From a phage, in NCBI GenBank assembly GCA_024672315.1, contig GCA_024672315.1_4714.1: a stretch of DNA of 64,000 nucleotides, one strand, 5' to 3'. Below the pieces are notes generated by a model. It made no database searches, had not been told where the DNA came from, and was given only the letters and a program-made list of their open reading frames with translations. The number at the start of each line of letters is the position of its first letter. The first letter of the stretch is position 1. Below are positions 1 through 64,000 of the stretch, one piece after another. A program made the position numbers and the translations under genes.

Positions 1-1137
1 CACCATCGCCAGAGCACCTGGGTTATGCGGACCAATACCACGAGCCGCGTTGCTGATTAAAGACTGTGCCCATGCCATGCCGCTGTTCAGCGTAGCGATG
101 GTACCAATCAGACCCAGCACGAAGCTGTTCGGTGTGAACGCATCCAGCTCCAGCGGGTAAACGCTGGTCATCACGTAACGCGGCTGGTACTGTACAGTCG
201 GCGGTACCGGATAGCCGTTAACCAGAACAGGGCCTTGGTTGAAGGTCGGGTTCTGCGGGCTGTAGGTCAGGTCAATGTAACCGGTGGTGGCGACCAGACG
301 CTGTTGACTATCGTAATCGCTCATCGCTTGACGGATGCGGTTAGAGATAGTTACAGTGATGTCAGAACGCACAGGGTTACCAACAATATCGCTGTCCTGC
401 ATACCGCTGGTGTTGTACTGAACGCTGCTGATTGGCTGATCGCTTGCCATCATGCCCAGGTTGAACTGCGGCAGACCCAGTTTATCACCGAGACGGATTT
501 CGATCGCGGTTTGGATTGCGTTATCTGCAGCAGACAGCAGGGTGGTTGCCAGATGCGCAGATTCAGCGGTGATTTCATTGGTCACCACAGCCAGACCAGC
601 GATACGAACAGTACCGTTAGACTTACCGCCAATAGCTGAATACATTGCCGCCATGACTTCGTTGATGAACGTACCGTTCAGGTTATCAACCCAGGTACGC
701 GGTACCAGAATGTTACCATGCGGACCTTGTTCTTCACGACGCGGCAGCGGAGCCAGACCAGCAACCAGCGGCAGGACGTAACCGAAGAAGTGGTTATGAT
801 CACCAACTTTTGCACCGCTCATAACAACCAGGGTCGGATACGGTACGCTGTACTGGTTCGGGTCAACCGCAACAAAGATGAAGTCGTCTTTGAACTGGGT
901 ATCTTCCAGATATTTCTCCATCAGACGACGGAGATTCAGTACCTGCTCGGAGCCGGTATTACGGCTGATACGACGGCTCAGTGTACGGTTGATCGTACGC
1001 ATCGTATGAGTTACTTTAGGACGGTCGGCAAAATCTGCAGCGGTTTCCAGCGCCTCATCAGCACGTTGTGCGGTGCGGGTTTCAGCTGCACGAATTTCTA
1101 CATTATCGTTACCGTTATTACGTACGTCTAAGCCCAT
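1..1137 (-). CDS. Highly expressed protein of unknown function, truncated by the window edge (at least 378 aa, N-terminus MGLDVRNNGND)
   Basis: Uninterrupted minus-strand reading frame from ATG at 1137 to the window edge; strongly biased codon usage (CGT, CTG, GGT, AAC) typical of abundant proteins; plus-strand ORFs listed here are shadow ORFs. Preceded by early-promoter-like motif at 1208-1240. Confidence 0.7.
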   Translation of the reverse strand, partial: MGLDVRNNGNDNVEIRAAETRTAQRADEALETAADFADRPKVTHTMRTINRTLSRRISRNTGSEQVLNLRRLMEKYLEDTQFKDDFIFVAVDPNQYSVPYPTLVVMSGAKVGDHNHFFGYVLPLVAGLAPLPRREEQGPHGNILVPRTWVDNLNGTFINEVMAAMYSAIGGKSNGTVRIAGLAVVTNEITAESAHLATTLLSAADNAIQTAIEIRLGDKLGLPQFNLGMMASDQPISSVQYNTSGMQDSDIVGNPVRSDITVTISNRIRQAMSDYDSQQRLVATTGYIDLTYSPQNPTFNQGPVLVNGYPVPPTVQYQPRYVMTSVYPLELDAFTPNSFVLGLIGTIATLNSGMAWAQSLISNAARGIGPHNPGALAMV

Positions 1138-2552: not shown

Positions 2553-4706
2553 TTACTCTGTGGTTTCTCGCTTCGGTAAATAACTTGCTGCAATGTCTTG
2601 GGCTAACAATGTATTGTTTTTATTCGAGATGAAAATACCGTAACTTTCCATTAACGCGTAATACGAACGCACGAGCGTAGAGATCAATCGACGAATATCC
2701 ATACCTTGAATAAAGATATCGGGAAGCCCGGAGGCTTCGATCACCGGTAATGGTATCGTTAAGTTGCTTATCGTTTTCTTATCGTTACGTACAATCCAAT
2801 CACGGAAACGTTGTTGTAACCCTTTATCCTCCCAGGAATCAATCCAATCGTTAAGAAGCGTTTTGTTCTTCGTCGCCAACGGCACACGAACCCCAACATA
2901 GGGTGGTTCCTGGCAATGGCCGTACGATTGAGCAAACACCTCTTCCCACATATCGTAAGACTGTTTCGTTACTGCAACATGCGGTTTCACTTTAACACGT
3001 GTTAAGAAATCAGGATCACCACGTTTCATGGACTCAACGATTTCGTTTTCTAACGAGATAATATCGTCAAGAACCAATCGAATGCTGATCTTCTCATTAC
3101 GTAACAGCTTATCCATGATACCGCACATCATGCGTTCAACACGTTTGACGATCATTTTTGGTGCTGACGCATCGCGCATAACCGGACCTTTCAATTCCAG
3201 CTTCGGTGGATTGATAGGAACCCCTTCACGCATGGTCATGTAACCGTAATAGTTTTTACCCATCGAGGTTAACGACAGAATCAAGAACATATATTCGTTC
3301 TTCATTTCCATCACGTACATATGCTCTTTCGCCACACCGATATTACCAGAACACATCGCCATCAGATGGACTGTAATCTGCGTAACCAGATAGATAAGCG
3401 TGTTTGCTAAGCGCGTCGAAACTGGATTGATCTCCATATTTCCAAATCGCCACTGAACCCACTCCTGGCAGGTAAACACTGTCGAGTCGGTATCAGACAA
3501 CACACCCACTTCACGGATTGCTGATGGGAAAGCATAAACGCCAGCCGGTTGATTCTCGGTACGCCAGAACGCCATAATCAAATCAGCGTAGCTTTGGATA
3601 CGCTGTAGCATTAATTTTGTCGTTGCTGCGGTAAGACGATAACCAAGTTCATTTCCTTTTTCTAGCGCTACGTAAATCGCCTCCCCATTCAAGAACTCCG
3701 TGCATTGTGCTGTAATCCAAGCAACCGTGTTGTTATCCATGGAAGCAATAATGGCTTTAGCCTCTTCCATCGTTTCAACAGGTTCGGATGCCAGTTCACA
3801 TAACGAGTCAAGAAAATCTCGAACAAATTCAGGATTAAGCTCACGTAACGAGTACAGGTTATTGCTGTACATGTAGCAGGCGCGTTCTAATGGCGTTAAA
3901 CCGGTAATTAGCTCCCGGATGGTCAGCTCTTTCTCTGGGTCGAAAGTATATCGATGCAAGCATTTCGATACGTTAGCCCAAACCTCTTCCGGCGTAGGGT
4001 AATGCAGTTTGTATTTTACCATTACCTGCTCAATGGCTTTACGATCGCTATTACGAACAATGCTCACGATGTTTTCAATTGCGATATCACAATCGTAATA
4101 ATGGAAATTGCCCGCAAGGAAGCGTTCGTTGTTCGCATTGGCTGAACCTGAAGCACAGCGACATGTTGTCGTTAAGCTTGGATGCGCAATCGGATTATAA
4201 AAAGGGTTGAACTTGGACGCCTGGGTTCCTGACAAACTGTTGTTATCTAACTTGGTGTTGGTTTGTCGCTTATCGTGTAACTCAGCTTCATCTTTACGTC
4301 CGTGTGCTTGTGCTATCGACATTTGTTTCTTTTGTTTCTTACGCAACTTACCGTTTTCAACCGCAAAGTCGCTTAGCACACTGGAGCGTGTCTCACGTGG
4401 ATAACAGTTAGCCCACACCGGCGTGATAATTAAATTATTTTCTTTAATATCGTTGAAGTATTGGCTGAACTTGATGACTTCTTTTTCACGATTTCCTTCG
4501 GTACGCTGTGTTAATACCAGGCAGTCGGGATCAACCATCCCGTATTTTCCACCAGGACGAACCGTTTCAAGAACAAACTGCAACGCTTCCTGCTGAGATA
4601 TCCCACGCATGCGCATTAAGAATAGGGTATAATCCTGTACCGCTTCTTTGGTCATATCCAACGTACGACCATATCCGTTTTCATCGTAAAAGAACGGATT
4701 TTCCAT
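2553..4706 (-). CDS. Hypothetical protein (717 aa)
   Basis: Long ORF; ATG at 4706 preceded by TGGAGGATTT (RBS); no motifs confidently recognised. Confidence 0.7.
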   Translation of the reverse strand: MENPFFYDENGYGRTLDMTKEAVQDYTLFLMRMRGISQQEALQFVLETVRPGGKYGMVDPDCLVLTQRTEGNREKEVIKFSQYFNDIKENNLIITPVWANCYPRETRSSVLSDFAVENGKLRKKQKKQMSIAQAHGRKDEAELHDKRQTNTKLDNNSLSGTQASKFNPFYNPIAHPSLTTTCRCASGSANANNERFLAGNFHYYDCDIAIENIVSIVRNSDRKAIEQVMVKYKLHYPTPEEVWANVSKCLHRYTFDPEKELTIRELITGLTPLERACYMYSNNLYSLRELNPEFVRDFLDSLCELASEPVETMEEAKAIIASMDNNTVAWITAQCTEFLNGEAIYVALEKGNELGYRLTAATTKLMLQRIQSYADLIMAFWRTENQPAGVYAFPSAIREVGVLSDTDSTVFTCQEWVQWRFGNMEINPVSTRLANTLIYLVTQITVHLMAMCSGNIGVAKEHMYVMEMKNEYMFLILSLTSMGKNYYGYMTMREGVPINPPKLELKGPVMRDASAPKMIVKRVERMMCGIMDKLLRNEKISIRLVLDDIISLENEIVESMKRGDPDFLTRVKVKPHVAVTKQSYDMWEEVFAQSYGHCQEPPYVGVRVPLATKNKTLLNDWIDSWEDKGLQQRFRDWIVRNDKKTISNLTIPLPVIEASGLPDIFIQGMDIRRLISTLVRSYYALMESYGIFISNKNNTLLAQDIAASYLPKRETTE

Positions 4707-8817: not shown

Positions 8818-8848
8818 CGGCATAAAAGCCTGCCCCGAAGGACAGGCT
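8818..8848 (-). promoter_or_regulatory. Hairpin plus TTTTATGCCGCG element (candidate terminator/late-promoter module)
   Basis: Short GC hairpin followed on the coding strand by TTTTATGCCG about 20 nt upstream of the ATG at 8804. Confidence 0.45.
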
Positions 8849-8857
8849 CGATAGAAC

Positions 8858-9058
8858 TTAATAACCATCCAATTTCAATGAAGGATGGTTGACGATATGT
8901 GCGTGTTTTGCTGGGTCATATAGCTGATATGGAAAATAGCCATGCCATTGACGGCCTTGGCATTTCGTACACAGGAACTGACCAGCACTTTGTCGATTCT
9001 CGTAAGCGAGTTCGGTACTATCAACATGACCGCAACGTTCGCAGATAAACAGCGACAT
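8858..9058 (-). CDS. Small zinc-ribbon protein (66 aa)
   Basis: Two CxxC pairs (CERC ... CTKC) spaced about 20 residues apart. Confidence 0.5.
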   Translation of the reverse strand: MSLFICERCGHVDSTELAYENRQSAGQFLCTKCQGRQWHGYFPYQLYDPAKHAHIVNHPSLKLDGY

Positions 9059-9095: not shown

Positions 9096-10076
9096 TTAGA
9101 AAAGCAAGAAACCGCTATTCTTCGCTTCCGCTACAGTTTCGTCACCAACTTTCGGTGCCTGTTGACGTGCGTTACGATGTTCGATGTAACGTTTCGCTTC
9201 GTCCGCGATCTGTTTGATAATACCCCCTAAACGATCGGTACTTAAAACAAACGACGTCGCTTCACGAATCGGGCTGCTTTCAGGCACAAAACCATCACAG
9301 CTGTAAATAGCGCTAACGCCCATGACTTTGGTCGCGTCTTTCGGATAAAGCGTACAGAAAGCAATCGGGCTATCGTTCTCTTTCGTCCAATCGTATCCCA
9401 TGAACGTATTCAGTTCGGTGATCGTTGGTTCCAAACCGGTAACACGCGGATGGTTTAAGAAGTTTTCCAGGTCGGCGCTGTCAAGACGACGGTTCTCGCC
9501 AGAAAACAGAACACAAAGCTGGCTAATAACAACCTGCACGTCCAGGTTGACATCCTGCTCCGATTTCCCATTTTCGCCATTCATGTGATAGCTAACAATC
9601 ACTGGACGTTTCAACCCTTCTGCGGCTGCCATCAGTCCTTTGAAGGTGCGATCGGCGTTGATCGTCTGACGCTCATCATCGAACGAGGCAACGATACAAC
9701 ACACCACACGTTCACCGCGTTCCAGCAGATTAGCAACCAACGCAGGACCGGCAACAGAACCTGAACCACCGCTCAAACTAAAGACCACGATATTAAATTT
9801 ACCTGGCGTATGCTTATTGAGAATACCTGGGATTTGTGAACAGATCAGCTCAGCGTTCTCATCACGCTTCTTACCGGAACCGTCTAGCTCACGACCAGCT
9901 GCATCTTTAAAGATGTAAATATGATCGTCGCCCAGTGTGCTATCGCGTAGGTTAGCGCGGCTGGTATCAACATACGTCATGCTGTGTAATCCTTTCGCGA
10001 CTTCGCCTTCAAATGCTGAGCCGATTTCGCCACCACAACCACCGACAGCCCAAATATGTACTTGGTTCTCTTGCAT
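9096..10076 (-). CDS. phuZ: Phage tubulin/FtsZ-like GTPase (PhuZ-like)
   Basis: N-terminal IWAVGGCGGEIGSAF (GGxG nucleotide-binding loop) and FSLSGGSGSVAGPALVANL matching the tubulin GGGTGSG signature; 326 aa, as for PhuZ of phiKZ-like phages. Confidence 0.85.
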   Translation of the reverse strand: MQENQVHIWAVGGCGGEIGSAFEGEVAKGLHSMTYVDTSRANLRDSTLGDDHIYIFKDAAGRELDGSGKKRDENAELICSQIPGILNKHTPGKFNIVVFSLSGGSGSVAGPALVANLLERGERVVCCIVASFDDERQTINADRTFKGLMAAAEGLKRPVIVSYHMNGENGKSEQDVNLDVQVVISQLCVLFSGENRRLDSADLENFLNHPRVTGLEPTITELNTFMGYDWTKENDSPIAFCTLYPKDATKVMGVSAIYSCDGFVPESSPIREATSFVLSTDRLGGIIKQIADEAKRYIEHRNARQQAPKVGDETVAEAKNSGFLLF

Positions 10077-10140
10077 GTGAACTCCTAACTTAATATGTAT
10101 TTAACGCACAATGAATCTTACTTTGCTAAAGGGGTGACCC

Positions 10141-10983
10141 ATGGGTGCTATTGACTACAGTGTAGATCGTATCTGTCGTACAATACCGGCAGATATCCTA
10201 CAGTATTGCTATATCGATCGTTACGACTGGCGTAATCGCTATCCTCGTTCCGTAGAAGACATCATTACCGATTGGGTAATCCGTAAACGGGTTATCGGCG
10301 ACATCGATATCTACGGGGGACTACAAACCGTTATTCCCCTTGATGATGCCGGTGTCACTATCGAAGAAGTCACCATTAACTGTTATGTTTTCCACATCCC
10401 GTTGGAAGCCACGCAGGGACGTTATATCACGTCTGCATTATCCATTATTTCAGGGAGCGTGAACAACTACGGAATAAACTATAACGGTCAATGGGGCGCT
10501 TTCAACCAAACCCAATTTCAACGTCAGCTTTGCGGATGGAACCCCGCAAGCAACACATTACAGCAAGGGATGAACGCGTTCGGTCCCATGAACGTTCTTA
10601 GTACAGCCAACGTTGATATCATCGCCCCTAACACCATCATGGTGAACAACGTCACGCCTGTACAATTTCCCCTGAGTCTACGTTGTTTCCTTGCCCACGA
10701 TCCGGAACTTACTAACCTCAGCATGGAGGTTTGGAACGACTTCTACAAACTCTGTTTATACGCCACACAAAGTGACATCTACAACAGAACCGTTATCCGT
10801 CTTGATAGAGGTGTTACAGCACAAGGACAAGAAGTCGGTGCATTCAAGGAATACATCGATCGCTTTGCTGATGCTGAAAACACATATCAGGAATTCCTGA
10901 ACGAAACGTGGGCTGGCGTTGCTGCCTGGAACGATCCACAAACTAAACGTCGCGCCATTCGTTTGCAAACCGGTTACTTCTGA
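10141..10983 (+). CDS. Hypothetical protein (280 aa)
   Basis: ORF divergent from phuZ. Confidence 0.6.
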   Translation: MGAIDYSVDRICRTIPADILQYCYIDRYDWRNRYPRSVEDIITDWVIRKRVIGDIDIYGGLQTVIPLDDAGVTIEEVTINCYVFHIPLEATQGRYITSALSIISGSVNNYGINYNGQWGAFNQTQFQRQLCGWNPASNTLQQGMNAFGPMNVLSTANVDIIAPNTIMVNNVTPVQFPLSLRCFLAHDPELTNLSMEVWNDFYKLCLYATQSDIYNRTVIRLDRGVTAQGQEVGAFKEYIDRFADAENTYQEFLNETWAGVAAWNDPQTKRRAIRLQTGYF

Positions 10984-35456: not shown

Positions 35457-38400
35457 TTATTTAGCGTCGTTAAAGTAAATATCAACAGCTCGTTCCGTTG
35501 CGTAGAGGAGACCAAGATTCACAGTCCCAACCACTTCCGGTGAACCGATGATACGGTTAGCGATACTGGTGCCACTGAAGATAGCATCAAGGGTGTGCCC
35601 GTCTTCGGTTTTGTTCACACCATGACCCACGGAAGAGACAACGGATTTCGCTTGTGCTGCGAAGGTACCTTTATCACCCATCCCCGCACCAAGGTCGTAA
35701 CGCATGAAAATACGGATAGCGATCTGGTTCTCGCCTAACGGATTACCGTCTATTCTCACGTTACTGTTATTGATACGCCCTGTTGTTGCCTCGCTGAGTT
35801 TCAGTTCCTTGACGCGTTTAGCTCGCGCTTTATCCGCTTCACCGACGAGCGCCGCCATGGTTTCGCTCATATCCTCAATCTGAGCGCGGTACAGTACATC
35901 GATCTGTACAACTTCACCATGAACATCAGCACGTGGGTTATACTGACTCATACGACGTAATGCTTCAACGGCTTCCTGACTCTCATCACTCAGATCAGTT
36001 GCGATCGGTTCTTCCAGTGTTGCAAGAATCGTTCGCGGTTCAACGTGGTCGCCGATTTTCACAAGACCACGAATGTTGAGATGGGCGTCAACGATAAGCG
36101 TACGGCTCTTAATCGATGGTGTTACGAGACGATCAGCAAGATTGTCGAAGATATACGAACTGTCCTCGTGAGTCTCTGGAATATCCAGAATACCGACAAG
36201 AGACAGAACACCTGCGCGCCAAACAACCTGACCCGGGTTCCACCAATCGCGTTTAAAATAAAGACGATGGAAAACCACCACATCCTGATCCTTAACGCGA
36301 TCCCCGACTTTATAATCGGTAATGAGATCATGGGGATAATACTTACCTGGTCCTTTCCCGATTATCGTACCGAGCTGGAAAACCTCTTCCCCTAACTCTG
36401 GATCGTCGTATTGTATCGTAAGCGCGGTTTTGGTGACCTTCTTCACAACACCATCGCCTTGGGCAGCTGCTGCGAAGAGCTTACCAACACGATGCGCGAT
36501 GACAGTCTCACCACCTGTACGCCACGGTTGTACATCGTAACCTTCAGCAGCAATCATGCGGTTGTGTTGGATCCCGACAAAGACCAGACGTTTTCCATCG
36601 TCGCGGTCTACAGCCGGAACAGCTAACGCTGACGTACTCATTACCGATGAAATGCCGTCTGTCTTTTCATCGAATGGTCGTGTTTCACCATATACCGACA
36701 CGATATTAGCATTAGGTGCGAGGTAAGCAGAAATACCTACGTCCCCGCTATCTTTCGTACCCTCTGACACAATACCAACATCGGACTTGTCGTATTCACG
36801 ATCGCGTGCGCGTCGAAGCGATGTCTTTGAACGACCTCCGATACCGGTCATCGTCGCTTCTTCACCCTGCTTGATATCCAACATCGGGTTGGTTTCATCA
36901 ATCACGATGGAAGCACTGTCGTCGAGAATCTGGTTCCAGACACTTACCGGACTGATTGATATTTTCTGGCGATTTCCTTGACTGCTGTTCTCATTCTGAC
37001 GAATAGCACCAACCAGGTCCTTATACACCAATTCAGCGAACTTATCGTACGTTTTAAAACGTTGGTAGTTCACATCGTTCGTGTTAGGAGCCCAATCATC
37101 CAGAAGCAGTTCAACAGCACGCAGTAACAACATGGCGAAATCGGTAGGTTCTCCCATGTTCTGTAGCAACGTACGGCTTACCGGATCAACGAAAAGACGC
37201 TCCATGAGTTCAAGTTCGCGTAAATGACGAACCTTAAGTCCAGCACCATCGACAACGTTAAAATAGATATCTCGATTGTCAAAAGCGCCGCGAGCGTAAC
37301 CGATGTAGTTACGGTATTCGTTAAACCCACCCAGCAACAACGTCGTCATGCGATCGTCTTTACTGAAGATCAAACTTTCGTCATCAAAGCTCACCGCGAA
37401 TTCATCGGGTGCTAGACCCATACGAGAACCGCGAGGTACCGTACGATAGTTCGCTTTAAGATGTTCTAATAACGGGGTAAGTCCACCCAGATAACTTAGA
37501 ACAACACCGACCGGAATACGTACACCCATGAATTCAAGATCGGCGGCTTCGATCGGCATCTTAGCCGCATTGATACCGAAGAAATCAGGGAACGTCCCTA
37601 CAGGTGTTGGTGTTTGTCCTGACTGACAGATATAGAGCTGATTGCGTTTATCGATTGCTAAGAATTCACCCAGCGTGTTACGCGCAAACGTCAGGAGCCC
37701 TTCGGCTAACTGTTCGTTGAACCGATCTTCCCCGATGAACTCCGGCAATGTCTTTGTATCGAGACGTATATCCCAATCAGCAAATTGGATTTGGGTATAG
37801 TTGCGTGCAAGCACAGCGAAGTAATACGGAACTTTGACGGCCGGATCAAAGACGTTACCGCGTTTCAACGTGGTTAAGGGTGAGGATTTATCGTAATACA
37901 TCGCCGTAAGTTGACGTGTTAGCCAACGACCGGCGTTATTAACGACGCGCTCTGAACGTTTAACAAACACCTTACCGTAGGCGGTACTCAACGCAACTTC
38001 AGATGACGATACCTTTCTAATAGGTTTATCAACACGTTGTTTACGCATCCGGTATTTGATGCCGTTAACGACATAAATGCCATCCTTACGAACCTTCGGC
38101 AACATCACCGGGAACGTGGTCGGGACACCGCCTACGGGAGCCAGTTTAATCGTGATGACTTGATAATCCCCCATCACGTCAACAACATCTTCGACTTTAT
38201 ATCCCGTAACAGGGTAACCCGCCTGCTGTACCGCAACAACAGCGGCTGCGATGTCCTTTTGCATTACGTGTTCAACGTAATGTTTATCCCACACCGCAAG
38301 CGTCGATTTACACAGGCTCTTATCGACGATAACATCCGCTTCCGGCATAACCTTTGCAGGAGCTAATTTCGCGGCTTTTGGTTTAACTTCAACATACTCG

Positions 38401-39803
38401 GCAAGTGTTAATCCAGAACCGTCGGGTGCTTCGATTTCATGGATGGCGTCAGCATTACGCATCGCTGCTTTATATTGGACACCGCTTAACTGACCTGCAT
38501 CGGCCAGATCGCTCGCGCGCACCAACACCGCATCCGATAACGACTGAATATACTCACCGTGTGTTTTTGGTAACGTTGTCGCGTCAAAGACATCAACCTT
38601 TTCTTCTTCGGTATCGTCGGTAACGACTTCGAAGAGATCGTCGGTAATGTCCTGATCTTCATCAGGTTGGAAATCCGGTTGTACTTCTACCCCAGGTACT
38701 TCACGGACATCTTCGAACGAGCGTTCTACAATGGCGTTCCACGCATCAGCGTCATCGTCTTCATCCGACCCGCCGACCAACTCAGCTTCTAACTCATCGG
38801 GATCAAGAACGGTAGCCAGATCCTCACCGTTAGGAAGCACGACGTCGCGATCATCGTACTCCGCATCCGGGCTGTCCGCAAGAATATCTCGCTCCTGACG
38901 AAGAACCTGTTCCTCTTCTTGTTTCTGTTCTTCTTCATTCGCGCTCTGCGACCACAGACGTGTTACCGCCATCATCCAACGACGTTGGAAGGTTTCAAGT
39001 GTCGTTTTATCGAGTTCTTCCCCTTCCTTTACAAGTCCGGTACGCCATTCTTCCAGCAGGCCGAGATTCAGCGTAAAGAAGTACACGCCGTCTGTGAATA
39101 CAACGTTAAGCTTGTCCAGCGTGGCTCTGTCTAACGAAGCCATCGTGCTGTTCTCACGATCGGTTCCCAGCCAGCGGAAGAAGTCAAAGAACGACAGCTC
39201 CTCCGGTGTGGCGAAATTCATGAGGTTGTTACGGGTCGGTGCCTGTTGCGTGGTACGCATCAACGAAATCTTCGGCAATGTTGACGGTATACGGAACAAC
39301 AAAAAGTGTTGGCGATCGCTTTGCTGTGCGATTTCGTTGGCTTTCGACCAAATTGTTTTACGTACATTGAACCATTCATCATACCAACGGGTGAGCGTTG
39401 GACGATAAATGTACATGTGGTTAAGATGCGCGTAGTTAGCAACGATCTGAGCGTTGATGTTTTTCTCCACCGTGCTTAGATCGGTAACCAAACGAAAACG
39501 ACGATGTGATGCACGATAATCCAATTTCGCTCGTGGGAGTTGGAATCGTTGATCGCGTCGAGGTGCACCCTGTTTGGTTGCGAGATCATCAGCAAACGAA
39601 ATCCATAGTTGAGCATTTTCTTTACTCAGCATGTATTCGTTTTCTGGAGGACCTATCAATGAAGGATCCGTTGCGATGTAATGATAGACAGCATAACGCG
39701 GCAGCTGCAATAGCTGCACTAAACGTAATCTTGGTGATAGTAACTCTTGGTAGCGTCTGACACCAAACTGTCGGTAGTAATCAAGGTATTTAAGTTTTGC
39801 CAT
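35457..39803 (-). CDS. Multisubunit RNA polymerase beta-like subunit (N-terminal part of beta; 1448 aa)
   Basis: TGIGGRS..RRARDREYD..VGIVSEGTKDSGDVGISAYLAPNA aligns with E. coli RpoB [40 protein letters not shown]; downstream AVPAV and GDKG segments align with beta NMQRQAVP and GDKxAGRHGNKG. No GEME region, so the beta C-terminal part is presumably encoded elsewhere. ATG at 39803 preceded by GGAG and an in-frame stop 2 codons upstream. Confidence 0.8.
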   Translation of the reverse strand: MAKLKYLDYYRQFGVRRYQELLSPRLRLVQLLQLPRYAVYHYIATDPSLIGPPENEYMLSKENAQLWISFADDLATKQGAPRRDQRFQLPRAKLDYRASHRRFRLVTDLSTVEKNINAQIVANYAHLNHMYIYRPTLTRWYDEWFNVRKTIWSKANEIAQQSDRQHFLLFRIPSTLPKISLMRTTQQAPTRNNLMNFATPEELSFFDFFRWLGTDRENSTMASLDRATLDKLNVVFTDGVYFFTLNLGLLEEWRTGLVKEGEELDKTTLETFQRRWMMAVTRLWSQSANEEEQKQEEEQVLRQERDILADSPDAEYDDRDVVLPNGEDLATVLDPDELEAELVGGSDEDDDADAWNAIVERSFEDVREVPGVEVQPDFQPDEDQDITDDLFEVVTDDTEEEKVDVFDATTLPKTHGEYIQSLSDAVLVRASDLADAGQLSGVQYKAAMRNADAIHEIEAPDGSGLTLAEYVEVKPKAAKLAPAKVMPEADVIVDKSLCKSTLAVWDKHYVEHVMQKDIAAAVVAVQQAGYPVTGYKVEDVVDVMGDYQVITIKLAPVGGVPTTFPVMLPKVRKDGIYVVNGIKYRMRKQRVDKPIRKVSSSEVALSTAYGKVFVKRSERVVNNAGRWLTRQLTAMYYDKSSPLTTLKRGNVFDPAVKVPYYFAVLARNYTQIQFADWDIRLDTKTLPEFIGEDRFNEQLAEGLLTFARNTLGEFLAIDKRNQLYICQSGQTPTPVGTFPDFFGINAAKMPIEAADLEFMGVRIPVGVVLSYLGGLTPLLEHLKANYRTVPRGSRMGLAPDEFAVSFDDESLIFSKDDRMTTLLLGGFNEYRNYIGYARGAFDNRDIYFNVVDGAGLKVRHLRELELMERLFVDPVSRTLLQNMGEPTDFAMLLLRAVELLLDDWAPNTNDVNYQRFKTYDKFAELVYKDLVGAIRQNENSSQGNRQKISISPVSVWNQILDDSASIVIDETNPMLDIKQGEEATMTGIGGRSKTSLRRARDREYDKSDVGIVSEGTKDSGDVGISAYLAPNANIVSVYGETRPFDEKTDGISSVMSTSALAVPAVDRDDGKRLVFVGIQHNRMIAAEGYDVQPWRTGGETVIAHRVGKLFAAAAQGDGVVKKVTKTALTIQYDDPELGEEVFQLGTIIGKGPGKYYPHDLITDYKVGDRVKDQDVVVFHRLYFKRDWWNPGQVVWRAGVLSLVGILDIPETHEDSSYIFDNLADRLVTPSIKSRTLIVDAHLNIRGLVKIGDHVEPRTILATLEEPIATDLSDESQEAVEALRRMSQYNPRADVHGEVVQIDVLYRAQIEDMSETMAALVGEADKARAKRVKELKLSEATTGRINNSNVRIDGNPLGENQIAIRIFMRYDLGAGMGDKGTFAAQAKSVVSSVGHGVNKTEDGHTLDAIFSGTSIANRIIGSPEVVGTVNLGLLYATERAVDIYFNDAK

Positions 39804-39806
39804 GGG

Positions 39807-39986
39807 TTAGGCTCCACGAGGTCCCGTTAAGTTGCGTAATAGGAACGCAACCGTATCGTAACCAATATCGATGTTGAATTTATTTTTACCACTTACCCAG
39901 AAAGCACGCTTCTTGTGCGAGTTGGTAATTTCGTCAATGGCTTCCATGGAATAAAGAACGTTAACCGAGACCGTATCGCCGTCGAA
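39807..39986 (-). CDS. RNA polymerase beta-prime-like subunit, exon 2 (59 codons: FDGDTVSVNVLYSMEAIDEI...)
   Basis: Translation aligns with E. coli RpoC [21 protein letters not shown] immediately after the catalytic aspartates; the exon stop is 3 nt before the beta start codon. Splice boundary inferred, plus or minus a few nt. Confidence 0.6.
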   Translation of the reverse strand, partial: FDGDTVSVNVLYSMEAIDEITNSHKKRAFWVSGKNKFNIDIGYDTVAFLLRNLTGPRGA

Positions 39987-40505
39987 CCTTGTCTTCGCCT
40001 CAGGTCGCTACGCTGAGACCGCCTGCGTGGATACGTACATCACAGGCTGCTTGCACTTTCATGCAAGAGGAGACTATATCAAACCGTCAGCTTCACCTGC
40101 TACGGTAACCTACACTTCGAAGACGCTTGTCCTCTACAGGGTGGTAAATCCCTTAGTCGTTGAACCTGCGTTGTTTCACATTCTTGTTTGCAAGAATGCC
40201 GTATTGCTACGCAACAACCAGGCTGCTGATTGCCCATTATCACGCACCTTAGCACCGCTTACGCGGCTTTTCTTTCAGCCTAAGCCTCCGTGGGAGGTAG
40301 TGCATCTCAACTGTTGTTTCCGCCTTTCGGCACCTCATGGGTTGTTGAGCTTTAGGGGTTCCCAGCAATTCGTAGGTTTTTCAAGCACTCCCTTTCGGGA
40401 ATACCGGACCAATTCAGTTAGTAAACAACATTATTACCATCCCTCATTCTTAAGGGTTAATTTTTTAAAATGATAAAATTAATGTGTTTTTGGGCTAACT
40501 CGAAG
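39987..40505 (-). other. Group I self-splicing intron (about 519 nt) within the RNAP beta-prime gene
   Basis: On the minus strand in canonical order: P-like AATTGCTGGGAAC (plus 40358-40370), Q-like AATCAGCAGCC (40221-40231), R-like GTTCAACGACTAAGG (40151-40165) and S-like GATATAGTC (40072-40080); exon 1 ends in U, the intron ends in G; no long ORF on the intron coding strand. Confidence 0.75.
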
Positions 40506-41972
40506 ATCACCGCCTAAACCGGCGAGGTATGGCGCAGGAACAATAGTCGTTTCTACGAACGAAGCATTAGGTAACCAGTCGGGGTATTCCCATGCGATAA
40601 ATCGTTCATCCGTTATTGGTTCCCAGTTACTATCCAGTTCGGTTTTCGGTTTTGCAGCGACGGTTGTACGCGCGTAACAGGTTAACGGGATAACGGATTG
40701 CATACCCGATACCGGATAACGTGTTACCATCGCAGCCAGGTTATTCCAGTACTTATATCCGGCGATATAGATAAGCTCGGTGTAAGTAATGGGGTGAACA
40801 TCCGCACCAGGTTTATTCAACATCTCTGGGGGTAATTCACTCATACCACGGAATAACCGAAACGAATCGTTGTTCACATAGACGAGGCAAAGATAACGTC
40901 CATTAACCATGATAGGCTCGTTACGCACACCAGGATCGCTTAAGGTGTTCAATAAACGTTCTATTCCGTCCCATGTTGTAAAGTCATCGATGGTATCTGG
41001 GTCTAACGTGACACGTTCACGTTCCATCGTTTCGATATCGATAAGTTCAACTTCTGTAACATCACGGACAAATATTTCCTGCAAAATCCCCGTACGTAGC
41101 GCATGTTGCGTTACAGGGAGAGCAGCTTTACTCATCTGGTATAACCCTAACTGAACCGCGGTACAGGAAGGCTGGTTAGGCGACCCTAATACCTCCGTTG
41201 TGGGGTTAATTGCCGAAATAACGTTACGGGTTGAGTTCCAAACGCGACGTGAGCCGAACTTACCTTGGAAGATCCCTTTCTTACCCTGGAACATATCCAA
41301 CAGTAAAGCGTAGATATCGTTAAATGTTCTCTGTAAGCTCCAACGTTGACCGTCGTAAACGGGATCAGAATAATCTTTTAATCCATCAGGGACGGTGTTA
41401 GAAATTGCAAGGAAACGACGATACAACTCCGTGATTTCTTGCTCGCTTTCATACCCACCTTCTTTTACTTCTATTTCACGTAAGCCTGCAGGCAATACCA
41501 GTAAGTGACGGGTCATCGCTTTGAACATGTTCTCTTCGACAACTTTAATTCGTAGCTCTCGTTGAGCTGAACCCGTTGAAACGAACTTGATATCAGCGAC
41601 GTGTTGTGCAAAGAACCCGTATCCTGTTTGTCCTGTTAATGCATCAGACGCAACGAAGTCGCGTTGTTCAGGATCCCAACGAGCATACGCCTTTCCCGAC
41701 ATGATATCACCATAGAGGTGTTTTAGTCGAATGAGGCGGTCGTAAATGACGGGATGCAGGATTTCAACTTTGCATTCAATCACCGCAAATCGACGGTCTC
41801 GATCTTCACTACCTGCGCTACCAAAGATGGTGTAAGAATAGAAACCATCATCGTGGAAATTACCGGTGCTTGGGTCACGAATGCTCATGCTCGTGATCTT
41901 GGGGAGAAAACGTAACTGCTGTTTATCGAGGTGTAAAATGCTAATGTTAAACGGCTCTCTGACTTTAGCCAT
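40506..41972 (-). CDS. RNA polymerase beta-prime-like subunit N-terminal part, exon 1
   Basis: AVIECKVEILHPVIY (compare GHIELAAPVAH), LLVLPAGLREIEV..EITELYRRFLAISN (compare VLPVLPPDLRPL..DLNDLYRRVINRNN) and FQGKKGIFQGKFGSRRVWNSTRNVIS (compare [23 protein letters not shown]); ATG at 41972 preceded by AAGAGGAG. The unspliced frame runs 8 codons into the intron to a stop at 40479. Confidence 0.8.
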
Positions 41973-42217
41973 GGAGACACTCCTCTTTACCACCACCGGC
42001 TGCGGCGGTATCATCTGAACACACGAGAGACGTAATGGGTGATGGCGTCACCCATCGCTTCCTTGCCTGATGCCAGGAAGTTATTAGGTTACGTACCGGC
42101 TTGATAAAATCAAGCAGGCGATGTGTGAAGTTACGCTTCAACATTATCAATGCCGAAGGTAAGCTTCGTGCATCACGTTCCAACGTAACATGGGAACGTA
42201 TCGAACTGGAGGTATAC

Positions 42218-51130: not shown

Positions 51131-52198
51131 TTAACCTAACGTCACTGTCGGTAAATCAGGATAAAGTTTCTTCAATCCCGCCATCGTGGTGGTAGTCGTA
51201 TAATTCTTACCCATCACAGCAAGAGATGCGTATTTCCTACTGCGGGAGAAAAGGGAATAAAACCCACTGGATGTTTCCATCCACATCGTGAGGAGTTCTG
51301 CATCCTTACCGTGATAGTTCGTTTTACCCCATCCGGGTTTAAACGCATCGGCAAAATCAATTAAACGCGAGGCTTCAGCGTCGTATTCTTTAAGGGTAAG
51401 GTACGATGGGATACGGTAGTTACGGAACAGTAACGTAATGAGTTCAGGGACAACGCTACGGGCACGTTCAGCCGTAATGAGTTCGGTGATAACAGCAGCT
51501 GTACGGAAATCGCCGTTAAGACCAACGCTGCTTAACGATTCCGCTAAAGTGGTCGCCATCGCCACTTTATCCTCCGCTGACCCAGAGTCATACAGACTAC
51601 GTACATCGATATAGTTGCCTGCTAATGCGGCTTGACGAATCAACGACGTGACAACCGTCCGGTTCGTCTTATAGTCGTTGTAGCTGAATTCGGTTCGCGT
51701 TTTCCCTTGATCCTCGAGATACCGATCAACAATCGTCGACAGTTTATAATACTCATCGCCAGACATCAGACTATCGAGAAGCTTAACATTTCCATCTTTA
51801 TCGATAAGCTTCCCTAACGCACCATTGGATTGCTGGTTAATGGTGCTGTAAATCTGGTCTTTTACTTGCGATAGGATGTTATCGGTTGACGATATATTCA
51901 GGCCAGTAACATCTTTGATCTTATTCATCAACGCGTTTTCATTCAGGGAGATTTTGCCTCCGCTGATATCGATGAAAGAATTAAGATCGCTTATGGAAAT
52001 CAGGTTTCCTGTTAACGCCGATAATGTACTATTGATACTGTTCGTAATACTGCTACGAAAACTGGTTAACGCATCCGCCGCTGAAACAGCGGTACCGCTA
52101 ACCGCTTTAAGGAGCGTATCACGCCCTGTCGAAAAATCGCTGGTGATGGTTTTGATCTTGGACGTATCTATACTCGGCAGTTTGTCGTAAAGACTCAT
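51131..52198 (-). CDS. Hypothetical protein (356 aa; start re-assigned to MSLYDK)
   Basis: ATG at 52198 preceded by CAGGAGGACGTG (strong RBS); the track start at 52249 lies inside the hairpin/TATGCCG element. Confidence 0.6.
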   Translation of the reverse strand: MSLYDKLPSIDTSKIKTITSDFSTGRDTLLKAVSGTAVSAADALTSFRSSITNSINSTLSALTGNLISISDLNSFIDISGGKISLNENALMNKIKDVTGLNISSTDNILSQVKDQIYSTINQQSNGALGKLIDKDGNVKLLDSLMSGDEYYKLSTIVDRYLEDQGKTRTEFSYNDYKTNRTVVTSLIRQAALAGNYIDVRSLYDSGSAEDKVAMATTLAESLSSVGLNGDFRTAAVITELITAERARSVVPELITLLFRNYRIPSYLTLKEYDAEASRLIDFADAFKPGWGKTNYHGKDAELLTMWMETSSGFYSLFSRSRKYASLAVMGKNYTTTTTMAGLKKLYPDLPTVTLG

Positions 52199-52227
52199 CA
52201 CGTCCTCCTGAAAAAGAAAAAAGAAAT

Positions 52228-52264
52228 ACGGCATAAAGCCTACCCACACAATGGTGGGTAGGCT
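52228..52264 (-). promoter_or_regulatory. Perfect 10-bp hairpin plus TTTATGCCGTATTTC element
   Basis: AGCCTACCCA-cacaa-TGGGTAGGCT followed on the coding strand by TTTATGCCGT, about 30 nt upstream of the ATG at 52198. Confidence 0.5.
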
Positions 52265-55465: not shown

Positions 55466-56140
55466 TTAGCCCTCATCAAGGTTATTCTGGAGATGCATCG
55501 CGGTGAGGATAACACCAACCGCCGAAACCGATTTTGCCTTGCTGTCTTCAGGGAGCTGCTCCAAGCTTACGGTACCTGTCTCTAACAGCATGCGGTTCAT
55601 CGCGTTGAATTTCTTATCGTCACCACCACGAGCCTGCATCAACTCTCTGTTCACGTTCGGCATCGACCGTCCTAACGTCGCTTGCATTTCCGGCTGGCTC
55701 CAAGTGGAACCTTTACTATCACCCGTCGGCTGATTAGTCAGCTGGTCCTTGGTGTTGTTGTTTTTCGGAATCGAAATTTTAGCACTCAACGTTTCGGCTT
55801 GTCGGCGGTTTGGAATCAGGTACAATCTGGTTGGGCGGTCACGAAGCACCAATTGCCCTGTTTTCTGGTCGGTGAGATAAATACGCTGGAAGAAGGGGAA
55901 ACCGTATTTCTTACCGACTTCCAACGCACGTTTTATCGTCACCTCGTTTTTGTTCATGTTGGGTACCCAGATGGGTAGAATCTCTTTCTTATCCCGACAT
56001 AAACGCATATAGGCATCAAACGTCTCATCATCGATTTCAGCAAAACGTTTTTTGTAAATAGCGTAAGTCGGGCTCGATTCACCCACCAGGTCTTTGATAT
56101 ACCCAAGAATGAATTTTTCTGCTGCAGCGCGGTTGGACAT
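55466..56140 (-). CDS. Hypothetical protein (224 aa)
   Basis: ORF. Confidence 0.6.
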   Translation of the reverse strand: MSNRAAAEKFILGYIKDLVGESSPTYAIYKKRFAEIDDETFDAYMRLCRDKKEILPIWVPNMNKNEVTIKRALEVGKKYGFPFFQRIYLTDQKTGQLVLRDRPTRLYLIPNRRQAETLSAKISIPKNNNTKDQLTNQPTGDSKGSTWSQPEMQATLGRSMPNVNRELMQARGGDDKKFNAMNRMLLETGTVSLEQLPEDSKAKSVSAVGVILTAMHLQNNLDEG

Positions 56141-61978: not shown

Positions 61979-63319
61979 ATGATTAGTATTTTTGGTTTTT
62001 ATACGTACAAAGGGTACGCTAATAACCACCCAAAAACCACGGCGAAATTCGGTGAGTTCAGTCAGCACAGTGCTACGTTCAGTCGCGAGATCGGCATCTA
62101 TTCCAACACGGCGTACGCACGTACGACCTTATTAGTGTTGAATGCCGAAAACGAAGCTGGTGAAGCACAAACGCTGAATGACGACACCGCAGGCCGTATT
62201 CTTCAGGTTGGTCAATGGTTGCTGGAAAAAGCCGCATCGGGCGAAATCCAGGAAGACCGAGACCAGGTTATCAGTTACCTAAAAGACGACTTCACAACGT
62301 ATCTGGATTCTATCGACATCCCAACACCCACCACCGATGGTACAGTCTATCTACCGGCGTGGATCAGTTTCAAGATAACCGCCACCGGCGATGTTGTCAA
62401 GATTTGGTTGTCTGATAGCGTATTCCAAAGTCAATATCCAAAATACGAATATGAAGTCGTTCCCCCTGTTCCTAAGGATCAGTTAGATACCTTCTTCGAA
62501 GATCTGGCAACATTGAAGAAACTGGTTGACAGTCGAAGCAGCGAGAAACTGACCGAAGAAATCAACGAGGTGCGCGACCAATTCCCAGACACACAATTGT
62601 GGACGAAAACCTATAAAGCGTATGATTACACCGACGATTCGAAATACATTAATACCGATTGGACGGTGATTATCTACGGTGCGGCAGGTAACAACATTGA
62701 TAATATCAAGGAGTTCCTGCAAAACTGGATTCTTAGCAATAGCACACACGGACGTCCAGACTGGGAAATCGTTCTGCCGGATCTTTTTATTCCGACAGAA
62801 CACATCTTCATCCCGATCTGGAACCGCCACAGTGCTCCAGAGATGACCAATCAGGCACGTATCTATAGTCCTATCTTCGATGATTCGTTGATGGATACCT
62901 ACCTGAAAAACTTTGCTGATGGTTACGGCGAAACCGCCGAAGTCCGTAAGTCGCTTCAAGCGGTGCCGACGCTGTGGCGCTCGATCGGTTTCTTAAGTGT
63001 TGGTAACTCACGTAACCGAGACGGTAAACTTAAGTTCTACGATCGTTGGCCGCAATACGCGCTCATCAGCACAACCAGCATCGACATTAACCGTATCGAT
63101 GATGCGACACGTGAATTCATCACGTTCACTTACGAAATGCTGAAACTGGCAGAATCGCTCACCGAAGACGACCCGGTACCGTTGGGTTATAGTCGTGTTA
63201 CGCGCGGTAGCAATAGCTTCTTAGCGAAAAGCCACAACGATGTTCAGTATCTCTTCTTAACAAAAGAAGCGTTCCTGAAGAAAATGCCGGATGAAGCCGA
63301 CACACCCGTTGGAGGTTGA
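61979..63319 (+). CDS. Hypothetical protein (start re-assigned to MISIFGFY)
   Basis: ATG at 61979 preceded by GAGGACGTCGA; the track start at 61943 leaves only an 18-nt divergent intergenic gap. Confidence 0.55.
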   Translation: MISIFGFYTYKGYANNHPKTTAKFGEFSQHSATFSREIGIYSNTAYARTTLLVLNAENEAGEAQTLNDDTAGRILQVGQWLLEKAASGEIQEDRDQVISYLKDDFTTYLDSIDIPTPTTDGTVYLPAWISFKITATGDVVKIWLSDSVFQSQYPKYEYEVVPPVPKDQLDTFFEDLATLKKLVDSRSSEKLTEEINEVRDQFPDTQLWTKTYKAYDYTDDSKYINTDWTVIIYGAAGNNIDNIKEFLQNWILSNSTHGRPDWEIVLPDLFIPTEHIFIPIWNRHSAPEMTNQARIYSPIFDDSLMDTYLKNFADGYGETAEVRKSLQAVPTLWRSIGFLSVGNSRNRDGKLKFYDRWPQYALISTTSIDINRIDDATREFITFTYEMLKLAESLTEDDPVPLGYSRVTRGSNSFLAKSHNDVQYLFLTKEAFLKKMPDEADTPVGG

Positions 63320-63948
63320 TTATGGCTGTAACACGCATGACGCCAAGTCCCGGTGCGGTCGGGGTATTCACAGTATCAGCGCCGTTTACCGTTGGTGCGT
63401 CGACGCTATATACCGTTACAGCGTTGCGAAGATTTAGCGAAGTCATCGGTAGTGGAATCGATCTATTTACGGAACTGTACGAACCGTTATCGATAGACAA
63501 ATCCACTTTCGAAGCGCATCTCGAAGCGAATGCTTATCTCGTCACGTTGCAACCAGATTATGGTGCGCCCGTACTGGTACCCGACACGTATATCACGTCG
63601 TACCCAAAGAACGATTCCTTGCGGTATCGTCGCATTATTCTGGGTATCGATTTCGGGCCTCTTCCTCCCGGTCTTGACCTTTCGTATTTAACAACGATAT
63701 TGAAAGGTAAGGCCAGTGATATTCTTGGTGTCGAACCTGAAGTTAAAACGATGGAAATCACGCTCGATGATACCGTTACTCAGGAACAACATCAGATAAA
63801 CGAAGCCCGTCGTCAGGCTGCGATAAAAGAGCGAGATACCATTTACGCACGCTGTGAAACGCAAGAGAAGCAGATAACGGCTTTACTTGCAACCCAAAAG
63901 CAACTTATCAAATTGCTTCAAGACGCCGGAATCAATCCGACACCTTAA
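63316..63948 (+). CDS. Hypothetical protein (210 aa)
   Basis: ATGA-overlapped with the upstream gene; C-terminal coiled-coil-like region. Confidence 0.6.
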   Translation: MIMAVTRMTPSPGAVGVFTVSAPFTVGASTLYTVTALRRFSEVIGSGIDLFTELYEPLSIDKSTFEAHLEANAYLVTLQPDYGAPVLVPDTYITSYPKNDSLRYRRIILGIDFGPLPPGLDLSYLTTILKGKASDILGVEPEVKTMEITLDDTVTQEQHQINEARRQAAIKERDTIYARCETQEKQITALLATQKQLIKLLQDAGINPTP

Positions 63949-63986: not shown

Positions 63987-64000
63987 TTATGCCGTCAAGC

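Follow-up and report, generated by a model that had tools for sequence, protein, structure and literature searches.

A PhuZ-Type Tubulin Gene in a 64-kb Goslarvirus Sequence and Its Genomic Setting

Introduction

The stretch of phage DNA analyzed here (64,000 nt; hereafter referred to as the window) contains an open reading frame (ORF) for a 326-aa protein with glycine-rich loops of the tubulin/FtsZ type, which raises the questions of whether this protein is PhuZ, the phage tubulin, or a TubZ- or FtsZ-type relative, whether the gene is intact, and what its identity means for the rest of the window. The evidence presented below leaves little doubt that the ORF encodes PhuZ, a GTPase of the tubulin/FtsZ superfamily, and that the window derives from a Goslarvirus, one of the nucleus-forming jumbo phages that make up the Chimalliviridae. 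The protein is thus already known, as a near-identical PhuZ has been imaged in vivo and mutated, and its structure has been solved.

Results and Discussion

Identification of the PhuZ Gene

The PhuZ coding sequence was found in the ORF listing of the window at positions 9096..10076 on the minus strand; it starts with ATG, is intact, and comprises 326 codons and a stop codon. A Shine-Dalgarno sequence, AGGAG (10082..10086, minus strand), could be read from the sequence 5 nt upstream of the start codon. A preliminary description of this DNA, which did not state the strand, had reported a 326-aa protein with two glycine-rich loops at this position and had classified it as a PhuZ-type tubulin; the ORF and both loops are present, and the classification is supported by a full-length match to PHROG 4733 “tubulin PhuZ” (E = 2.9e-68) and by identity to PhuZ of Escherichia phage vB_EcoM_Goslar at 325 of 326 residues, both far beyond chance. 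The Goslar orthologue is HOV27_gp234 in RefSeq numbering (YP_009820885.1, “tubulin PhuZ”), which is named Goslar_00201 or gp201 in Birkholz 2022, and the sole change between the two proteins is the conservative substitution E229D.

A sequence search of the PDB with the window PhuZ identified the Goslar structures 9pm9/9pmk (E = 4e-220; 325/326 residues identical), phiKZ gp39 (3zbp/3zbq; E = 8e-29), and 201phi2-1 PhuZ (3r4v, 3rb8, and 3j5v; E = 6e-15); the same search returned zero TubZ or FtsZ chains, even at E ≤ 10. Homologues of PhuZ were found by tblastn in 173 phage records; those listed were all jumbo phages (190–312 kb) and, among the matches listed, Goslar was the only phage isolate with more than 32% identity to the window PhuZ. 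All sequence homologues of this protein were phage PhuZ proteins. The Pfam Tubulin model (PF00091) matched residues 9–151 with 29.9 bits (E = 8e-7), which falls short of the gathering score of 33, so that this generic model alone would not call PhuZ. In addition, PF22334, which accompanies PF00091 in the precomputed annotations of the majority of remoter homologues, was absent from the window PhuZ in our Pfam scan; together with the sub-threshold PF00091 match, this indicates that the Goslar lineage represents a divergent branch of PhuZ.

Conserved Motifs and Evidence for Selection

The catalytic and nucleotide-binding residues are all found in the window protein, which carries the loop patterns GGxG (T1), GG(G/S)SGS (T4), and LDxxD (T7). 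The T1-type glycine loop, VGGCGGEIGS (codons 11–20; 10017..10046, minus strand), includes G12, G13, and G15, which are nearly invariant in a 20-sequence PhuZ alignment, as are S105, G106, S107, and G322. The T4 loop, SLSGGSGSVAGP (codons 100–111; 9744..9779, minus strand), includes G103 and G104, which are invariant in the 20 relatives. The preliminary description had located both loops correctly and had equated the second with the tubulin signature GGGTGSG; its core is GGSGSV, the PhuZ version, which resembles this signature without matching it strictly. The T7-loop, DSAD (codons 199–202; 9471..9482, minus strand), contributes the invariant aspartates D199 and D202; D202, the residue changed to alanine in the dominant-negative Goslar PhuZ, is retained here. 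The segment LDSADLEN aligns with LDVHDVAN in 201phi2-1 and LDLMDITN in phiKZ, with the T7 aspartates inside the aligned segment. The other positions that are invariant in the 20 relatives are D37-T38-S39, N42, G66, G68, R71, V108, N140, Y163, N166, and L190.

In the AlphaFold2 model described below, a long helix (residues 281–305) precedes a flexible C-terminal tail with low pLDDT (codons 306–326; 9099..9161, minus strand), which ends in GFLLF and in which G322 and hydrophobic residues are conserved. By analogy with work on 201phi2-1 and phiKZ PhuZ, this tail may mediate subunit–subunit contacts in filaments; compared to the consensus D-x-x-D-x-G-x-V-L, its terminal sequence (KNSGFLLF) is less acidic.

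The PhuZ gene differs from its Goslar counterpart at 16 of 981 nt, including 15 synonymous changes and one non-synonymous change (pN/pS ~0.02), indicating that the gene is maintained by purifying selection. The lone amino-acid difference results from codon 229 (9390..9392, minus strand), which is GAT (Asp) in the window and GAA (Glu) in Goslar and falls in a variable alignment column. These data bear on the possibility that this copy of PhuZ is a decaying or dispensable, non-functional remnant. PhuZ has been described as non-essential and as repeatedly lost; about two-thirds of nucleus-forming phages encode it and about one-third of these chimalliviruses are without it, and the gene that defines the Chimalliviridae is chimallin rather than PhuZ (PMC12908238). 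The ORF in the window is nonetheless intact and keeps all catalytic and nucleotide-binding residues, its 15:1 ratio of synonymous to (conservative) non-synonymous changes is that of a constrained gene, and the identical allele is found on 488 public contigs, which makes a remnant very unlikely.

Predicted Structure and Comparison with TubZ and FtsZ

An AlphaFold2 model of the window PhuZ, built from a 20-sequence alignment, had a mean pLDDT of 87.4 and a pTM of 0.86. When this model was compared to the PDB with Foldseek, PhuZ, CetZ, TubZ, and FtsZ structures were all matched with a probability of 1.00, indicating a tubulin/FtsZ-superfamily GTPase fold. The matches were nevertheless clearly ranked: 9pm9, “PhuZ Tubulin from phage Goslar (locally refined monomer)”, which has a release date of 2025-12-24, presented E = 7e-59 and a TM score of 0.91, followed by phiKZ PhuZ (E = 4e-26; TM 0.82) and 201phi2-1 PhuZ (E = 4e-23; TM 0.79–0.81), and then by CetZ (E = 2e-13), TubZ of phage c-st (E = 5e-13), FtsZ (E about 1e-12 to 1e-10; TM 0.55–0.62), and TubZ of B. 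thuringiensis (E = 2e-10). PhuZ proteins are therefore the best matches by sequence as well as by fold, whereas TubZ and FtsZ match at the fold level only, at 1e-13 or weaker; these proteins and CetZ share the superfamily GTPase fold with the window PhuZ but show 11–16% identity to it and occur in a different context. A further reading, prompted by the chain label “C” in 9pm9 and by an AVAST type 5 anti-jumbo-phage paper naming both PhuZ and Goslar, was that the solved structure shows PhuZ as the trigger in an immune complex. It was rejected, since that paper brings up PhuZ only as background and 9pm9 is a locally refined PhuZ monomer.

Given the common fold, the protein might instead be a TubZ-type segregation tubulin of a type III partition system, as found in Bacillus plasmids and Clostridium phage c-st, which would move the genome via a centromere-bound TubR adaptor; the phiKZ PhuZ structure 3zbq was itself deposited as “TubZ”. 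However, fold scores for TubZ fall short of those for PhuZ by more than 10 orders of magnitude, not a single TubZ chain was recovered at the sequence level even at E ≤ 10, the neighbors of the gene are a portal adaptor gene and a zinc-ribbon ORF rather than a gene for a TubR-like DNA-binding adaptor, and the genome is that of a lytic chimallivirus, making this reading exceedingly improbable. A host-captured FtsZ-like protein that interferes with host cell division is the least credible reading, with a probability close to negligible, since the fold-level matches to FtsZ structures on which it draws are set against 11–16% identity without sequence-level matches, against sequence homologues that are all phage PhuZ, and against a Goslar orthologue that surrounds the phage nucleus rather than forming a division ring (PMC9891218).

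Goslarvirus Genome and Related Public Sequences

The window can also be placed at the genus level. The whole 64 kb is collinear with positions 171,763–237,291 of Escherichia phage vB_EcoM_Goslar (NC_048170/MK327938) at 96.5–97.9% nucleotide identity (megablast), with one 1.5-kb indel; no nucleotide-level match to phage isolates other than Goslar was found by megablast among GenBank phages. Complete E. coli genomes contained no match to the window region, and relatives sit in draft assemblies and read archives. The exact D229 PhuZ is present on 488 public contigs (the longest being 259 kb), as compared to 10 contigs with the E229 version of the Goslar type strain; in assemblies of Salmonella enterica, E. 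coli, and Shigella, the D229 entries bear the label “hypothetical protein”, and E. coli, Salmonella, and Shigella are the hosts of this Goslarvirus lineage. These 488 contigs thus represent unrecognized Goslarvirus genomes inside bacterial assemblies. A 2025 study in Nature Microbiology enlarged the genus Goslarvirus from one to 237 genomes, all from bacterial assemblies (PMC12768965), and, in line with that study, collinearity with Goslar and the copies on public contigs identify the window as a Goslarvirus variant. Position 64000 of the window corresponds to position 237,291 of 237,307 in Goslar, which leaves just 16 nt of the Goslar record beyond it; the source genome and the Goslar reference thus appear to share their point of linearization.

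The preliminary description had also mentioned a nucleus-forming jumbo phage, a possible shell protein, and split multisubunit RNA polymerase (RNAP) genes, all of which agree with the gene content of the window. Goslar is a jumbo phage that has been shown experimentally to form a phage nucleus (PMC9891218). The first 379 residues of chimallin (ChmA), the nuclear shell protein, are encoded about 8 kb from PhuZ at 1..1137 on the minus strand (Goslar chimallin structure 7sqt, E = 3.5e-248; PHROG 4795); the frame is open over 379/379 codons and the gene is cut by the left edge of the window, whereas the annotated Goslar chimallin CDS has 1,896 nt (about 631 aa). This gene is missed by ORF lists from which ORFs running off an edge are left out. 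A divergent DNA polymerase, typical of chimalliviruses, is encoded at 2553..4706 (minus strand; PHROG 2927, E = 2e-206), and the domain PF20286 (divDNApol) is found in its orthologues. The window also holds three RNAP subunit genes, which match PHROG 3148, 2986, and 3233. The largest (35457..39803, minus strand; 1448 aa; PHROG 3148, 1390 bits), which corresponds to Goslar gp207, likely encodes, by synteny, the part of the virion polymerase that resembles phiKZ gp180; the smallest (55466..56140, minus strand) encodes a 224-aa subunit (PHROG 3233, E = 1e-65), and the third, a beta-prime gene, is described below.

A sigma-70 scan gave hits at chance level, as expected for phages with their own polymerases. 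When 9–12-mers of the 64-nt region upstream of PhuZ were searched across the window as candidate promoter motifs, only scattered matches with two to four copies were found, with no pattern.

Genes Adjacent to PhuZ

An ORF encoding a 66-aa zinc-ribbon-like protein with a CxxC...CxxC pattern (8858..9058, minus strand) begins 37 nt downstream of the PhuZ stop codon, and the two genes are probably co-transcribed. The unit is closed by a terminator-like hairpin read from the sequence, AGCCTGTCC-TTCG-GGGCAGGCT followed by TTTAT (8824..8848, minus strand). This hairpin is an annotated terminator in Goslar; our consensus terminator scan made no call at 8824..8848 because the T-tract is short. The zinc-ribbon ORF directly follows PhuZ, with a gap of 10–37 nt and a common terminator, in three Goslar-like lineages with PhuZ identities as low as 56%, and two metagenomic relatives (56% and 61% PhuZ identity) preserve the order DUF7484, PhuZ, zinc-ribbon ORF, and, further on, DNA polymerase and chimallin. 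Homologues of the zinc-ribbon protein in Xanthomonas, Erwinia, Pseudomonas, and Vibrio jumbo phages are unlinked to PhuZ, and neither Xanthomonas phage Xoo-sp14 nor Erwinia phage pEa_SNUABM_54 has such a homologue beside a PhuZ-sized gene. This lack of adjacency in distant jumbo phages suggests that the linkage represents local synteny and is not evidence of a functional pair; that the 66-aa protein might be functionally tied to PhuZ is an improbable speculation based on this synteny.

The gene on the other side of PhuZ (10141..10983, plus strand) is transcribed divergently and matches DUF7484 (Pfam PF24302, E = 1e-87); its Goslar counterpart, gp233 in RefSeq numbering, is the portal adaptor protein, a virion gene product (bioRxiv 10.64898/2026.04.21.720040). 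A role for this neighbor as a cytoskeletal partner of PhuZ was therefore rejected. Like this neighbor, two further genes, at 51131–52249 (minus strand) and 63316–63948 (plus strand), had been regarded as “hypothetical”; they correspond to gp202 and gp187, with coordinates obtained via Goslar mapping only, and both encode lower-wedge baseplate proteins in Goslar (2026 Goslar virion cryoEM preprint).

An Intron at the Catalytic Motif of the RNAP Beta-Prime Subunit

The gene for the N-terminal RNAP beta-prime subunit (39807..42014, minus strand) contains a group I intron and consists of exon 1 (42014 to 40505), a 518-nt intron (40504 to 39987), and exon 2 (39986 to 39807). The Rfam model Intron_gpI matched the minus strand at 40050–40434 with 63.6 bits, and the point of insertion coincides with DFDGD, the catalytic motif of RNAP beta-prime. 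Exon 1 ends in ...LAGLGGD at position 40505, on a T, and the last base of the intron, at 39987, is a G; exon 2 reads FDGDTVSV... and its stop codon, at 39807, lies three nt before the ATG of the next gene. Joining the exons in silico, with a predicted junction of GGT GAT|TTC GAC, recreates DFDGD and extends the match to PHROG 2986 from profile positions 3–484 (536 bits) for the unspliced ORF (40479–42014) to positions 3–538/539 (596 bits) for the spliced product. Exon 1 of this gene is annotated as a stand-alone ORF in Goslar.

The only large difference between the window and Goslar is also located here: 94 nt at 40504–40411 stand in place of 1,571 nt in Goslar (212,226–213,797). The Goslar segment, within an annotated group I intron, represents gp206, a 490-aa protein whose HNH_3 and NUMOD1 domains mark it as a homing endonuclease; the RNAP intron of the window is without this HNH endonuclease ORF. 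Identity in the sequence flanking the indel is ~90%, as compared to ~97% elsewhere. A study by Birkholz et al., which appears in the reference list of the review cited above, reportedly concerns PhiPA3 and phiKZ; with this precedent, the polymorphism seen here probably represents one more case of a phenomenon already described.

Proposed Function of PhuZ in the Goslar Lineage

The window shares with Goslar (9pm9/9pmk) the order of genes around PhuZ, the flanking genes, the terminator, and all PhuZ motifs including D202, and differs from it in this gene by E229D and 15 silent changes. Filaments of GFP-PhuZ were observed in 19% of cells at 30 min and in 97% at 60 min (PMC9891218). These filaments wrap the chimallin shell and extend from it as far as the membrane, forming a vortex and no bipolar spindle (PMC9891218; PMC12908238), and PhuZ is located around the phage nucleus, not at the division ring (PMC9891218). 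PhuZ(D202A), a change meant to block GTP hydrolysis, polymerizes at much lower expression and is dominant negative in Goslar, where it abolishes the vortex and strongly reduces rotation of the nucleus (PMC9891218); nucleus positioning and growth are unchanged (PMC9891218; PMC12908238). Mass spectrometry of Goslar virion preparations has detected PhuZ as co-purifying filaments (2026 preprint). By analogy with the 99.7%-identical Goslar protein, the D229 allele is predicted to polymerize in a GTP-dependent manner into dynamic filaments, and filament and vortex formation as well as the D202A phenotype would carry over to it.

PhuZ of phiKZ (gp39; 3zbp/3zbq) and 201phi2-1 (gp59; 3r4v, 3rb8, and 3j5v) shows 23–27% identity to the window PhuZ and has in common with it the family, the fold, the T4 loop, the T7 LDxxD pattern, a long C-terminal helix and tail (predicted for the window PhuZ), and the context of a chimallin-encoding jumbo phage. 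However, while PhuZ in these two phages forms a bipolar spindle that centers the nucleus, Goslar-type PhuZ assembles into a vortex by which the nucleus is rotated but not positioned. The statement in the preliminary description that PhuZ positions the phage nucleus thus applies to phiKZ, PhiPA3, and 201phi2-1, but not to the Goslar lineage, in which the function shown is rotation.

A mechanism can be proposed on this basis. GTP-bound PhuZ subunits would join head to tail, with D199 and D202 in the T7 loop of one subunit completing the GTPase site of the next and with the C-terminal tail, as the literature on Pseudomonas phage PhuZ suggests, reaching the neighboring subunit; GTP hydrolysis would then provide for filament dynamics. 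In the Goslar lineage, filaments may form a vortex round the chimallin shell and push on the cell membrane, such that the phage nucleus rotates. This rotation is thought to spread capsids over the nuclear surface for DNA packaging, with a role in capsid delivery suggested by Pseudomonas phage PhuZ.

Conclusions

Nothing new about phage tubulins is learned from the window PhuZ. Its identification fixes the frame in which the window is to be read, i.e., as part of a jumbo phage that forms a nucleus and belongs to the genus Goslarvirus, and the other genes in the window are therefore best interpreted against the literature on Goslar, including its chimallin shell, its own RNA polymerases, and the structure of its virion.
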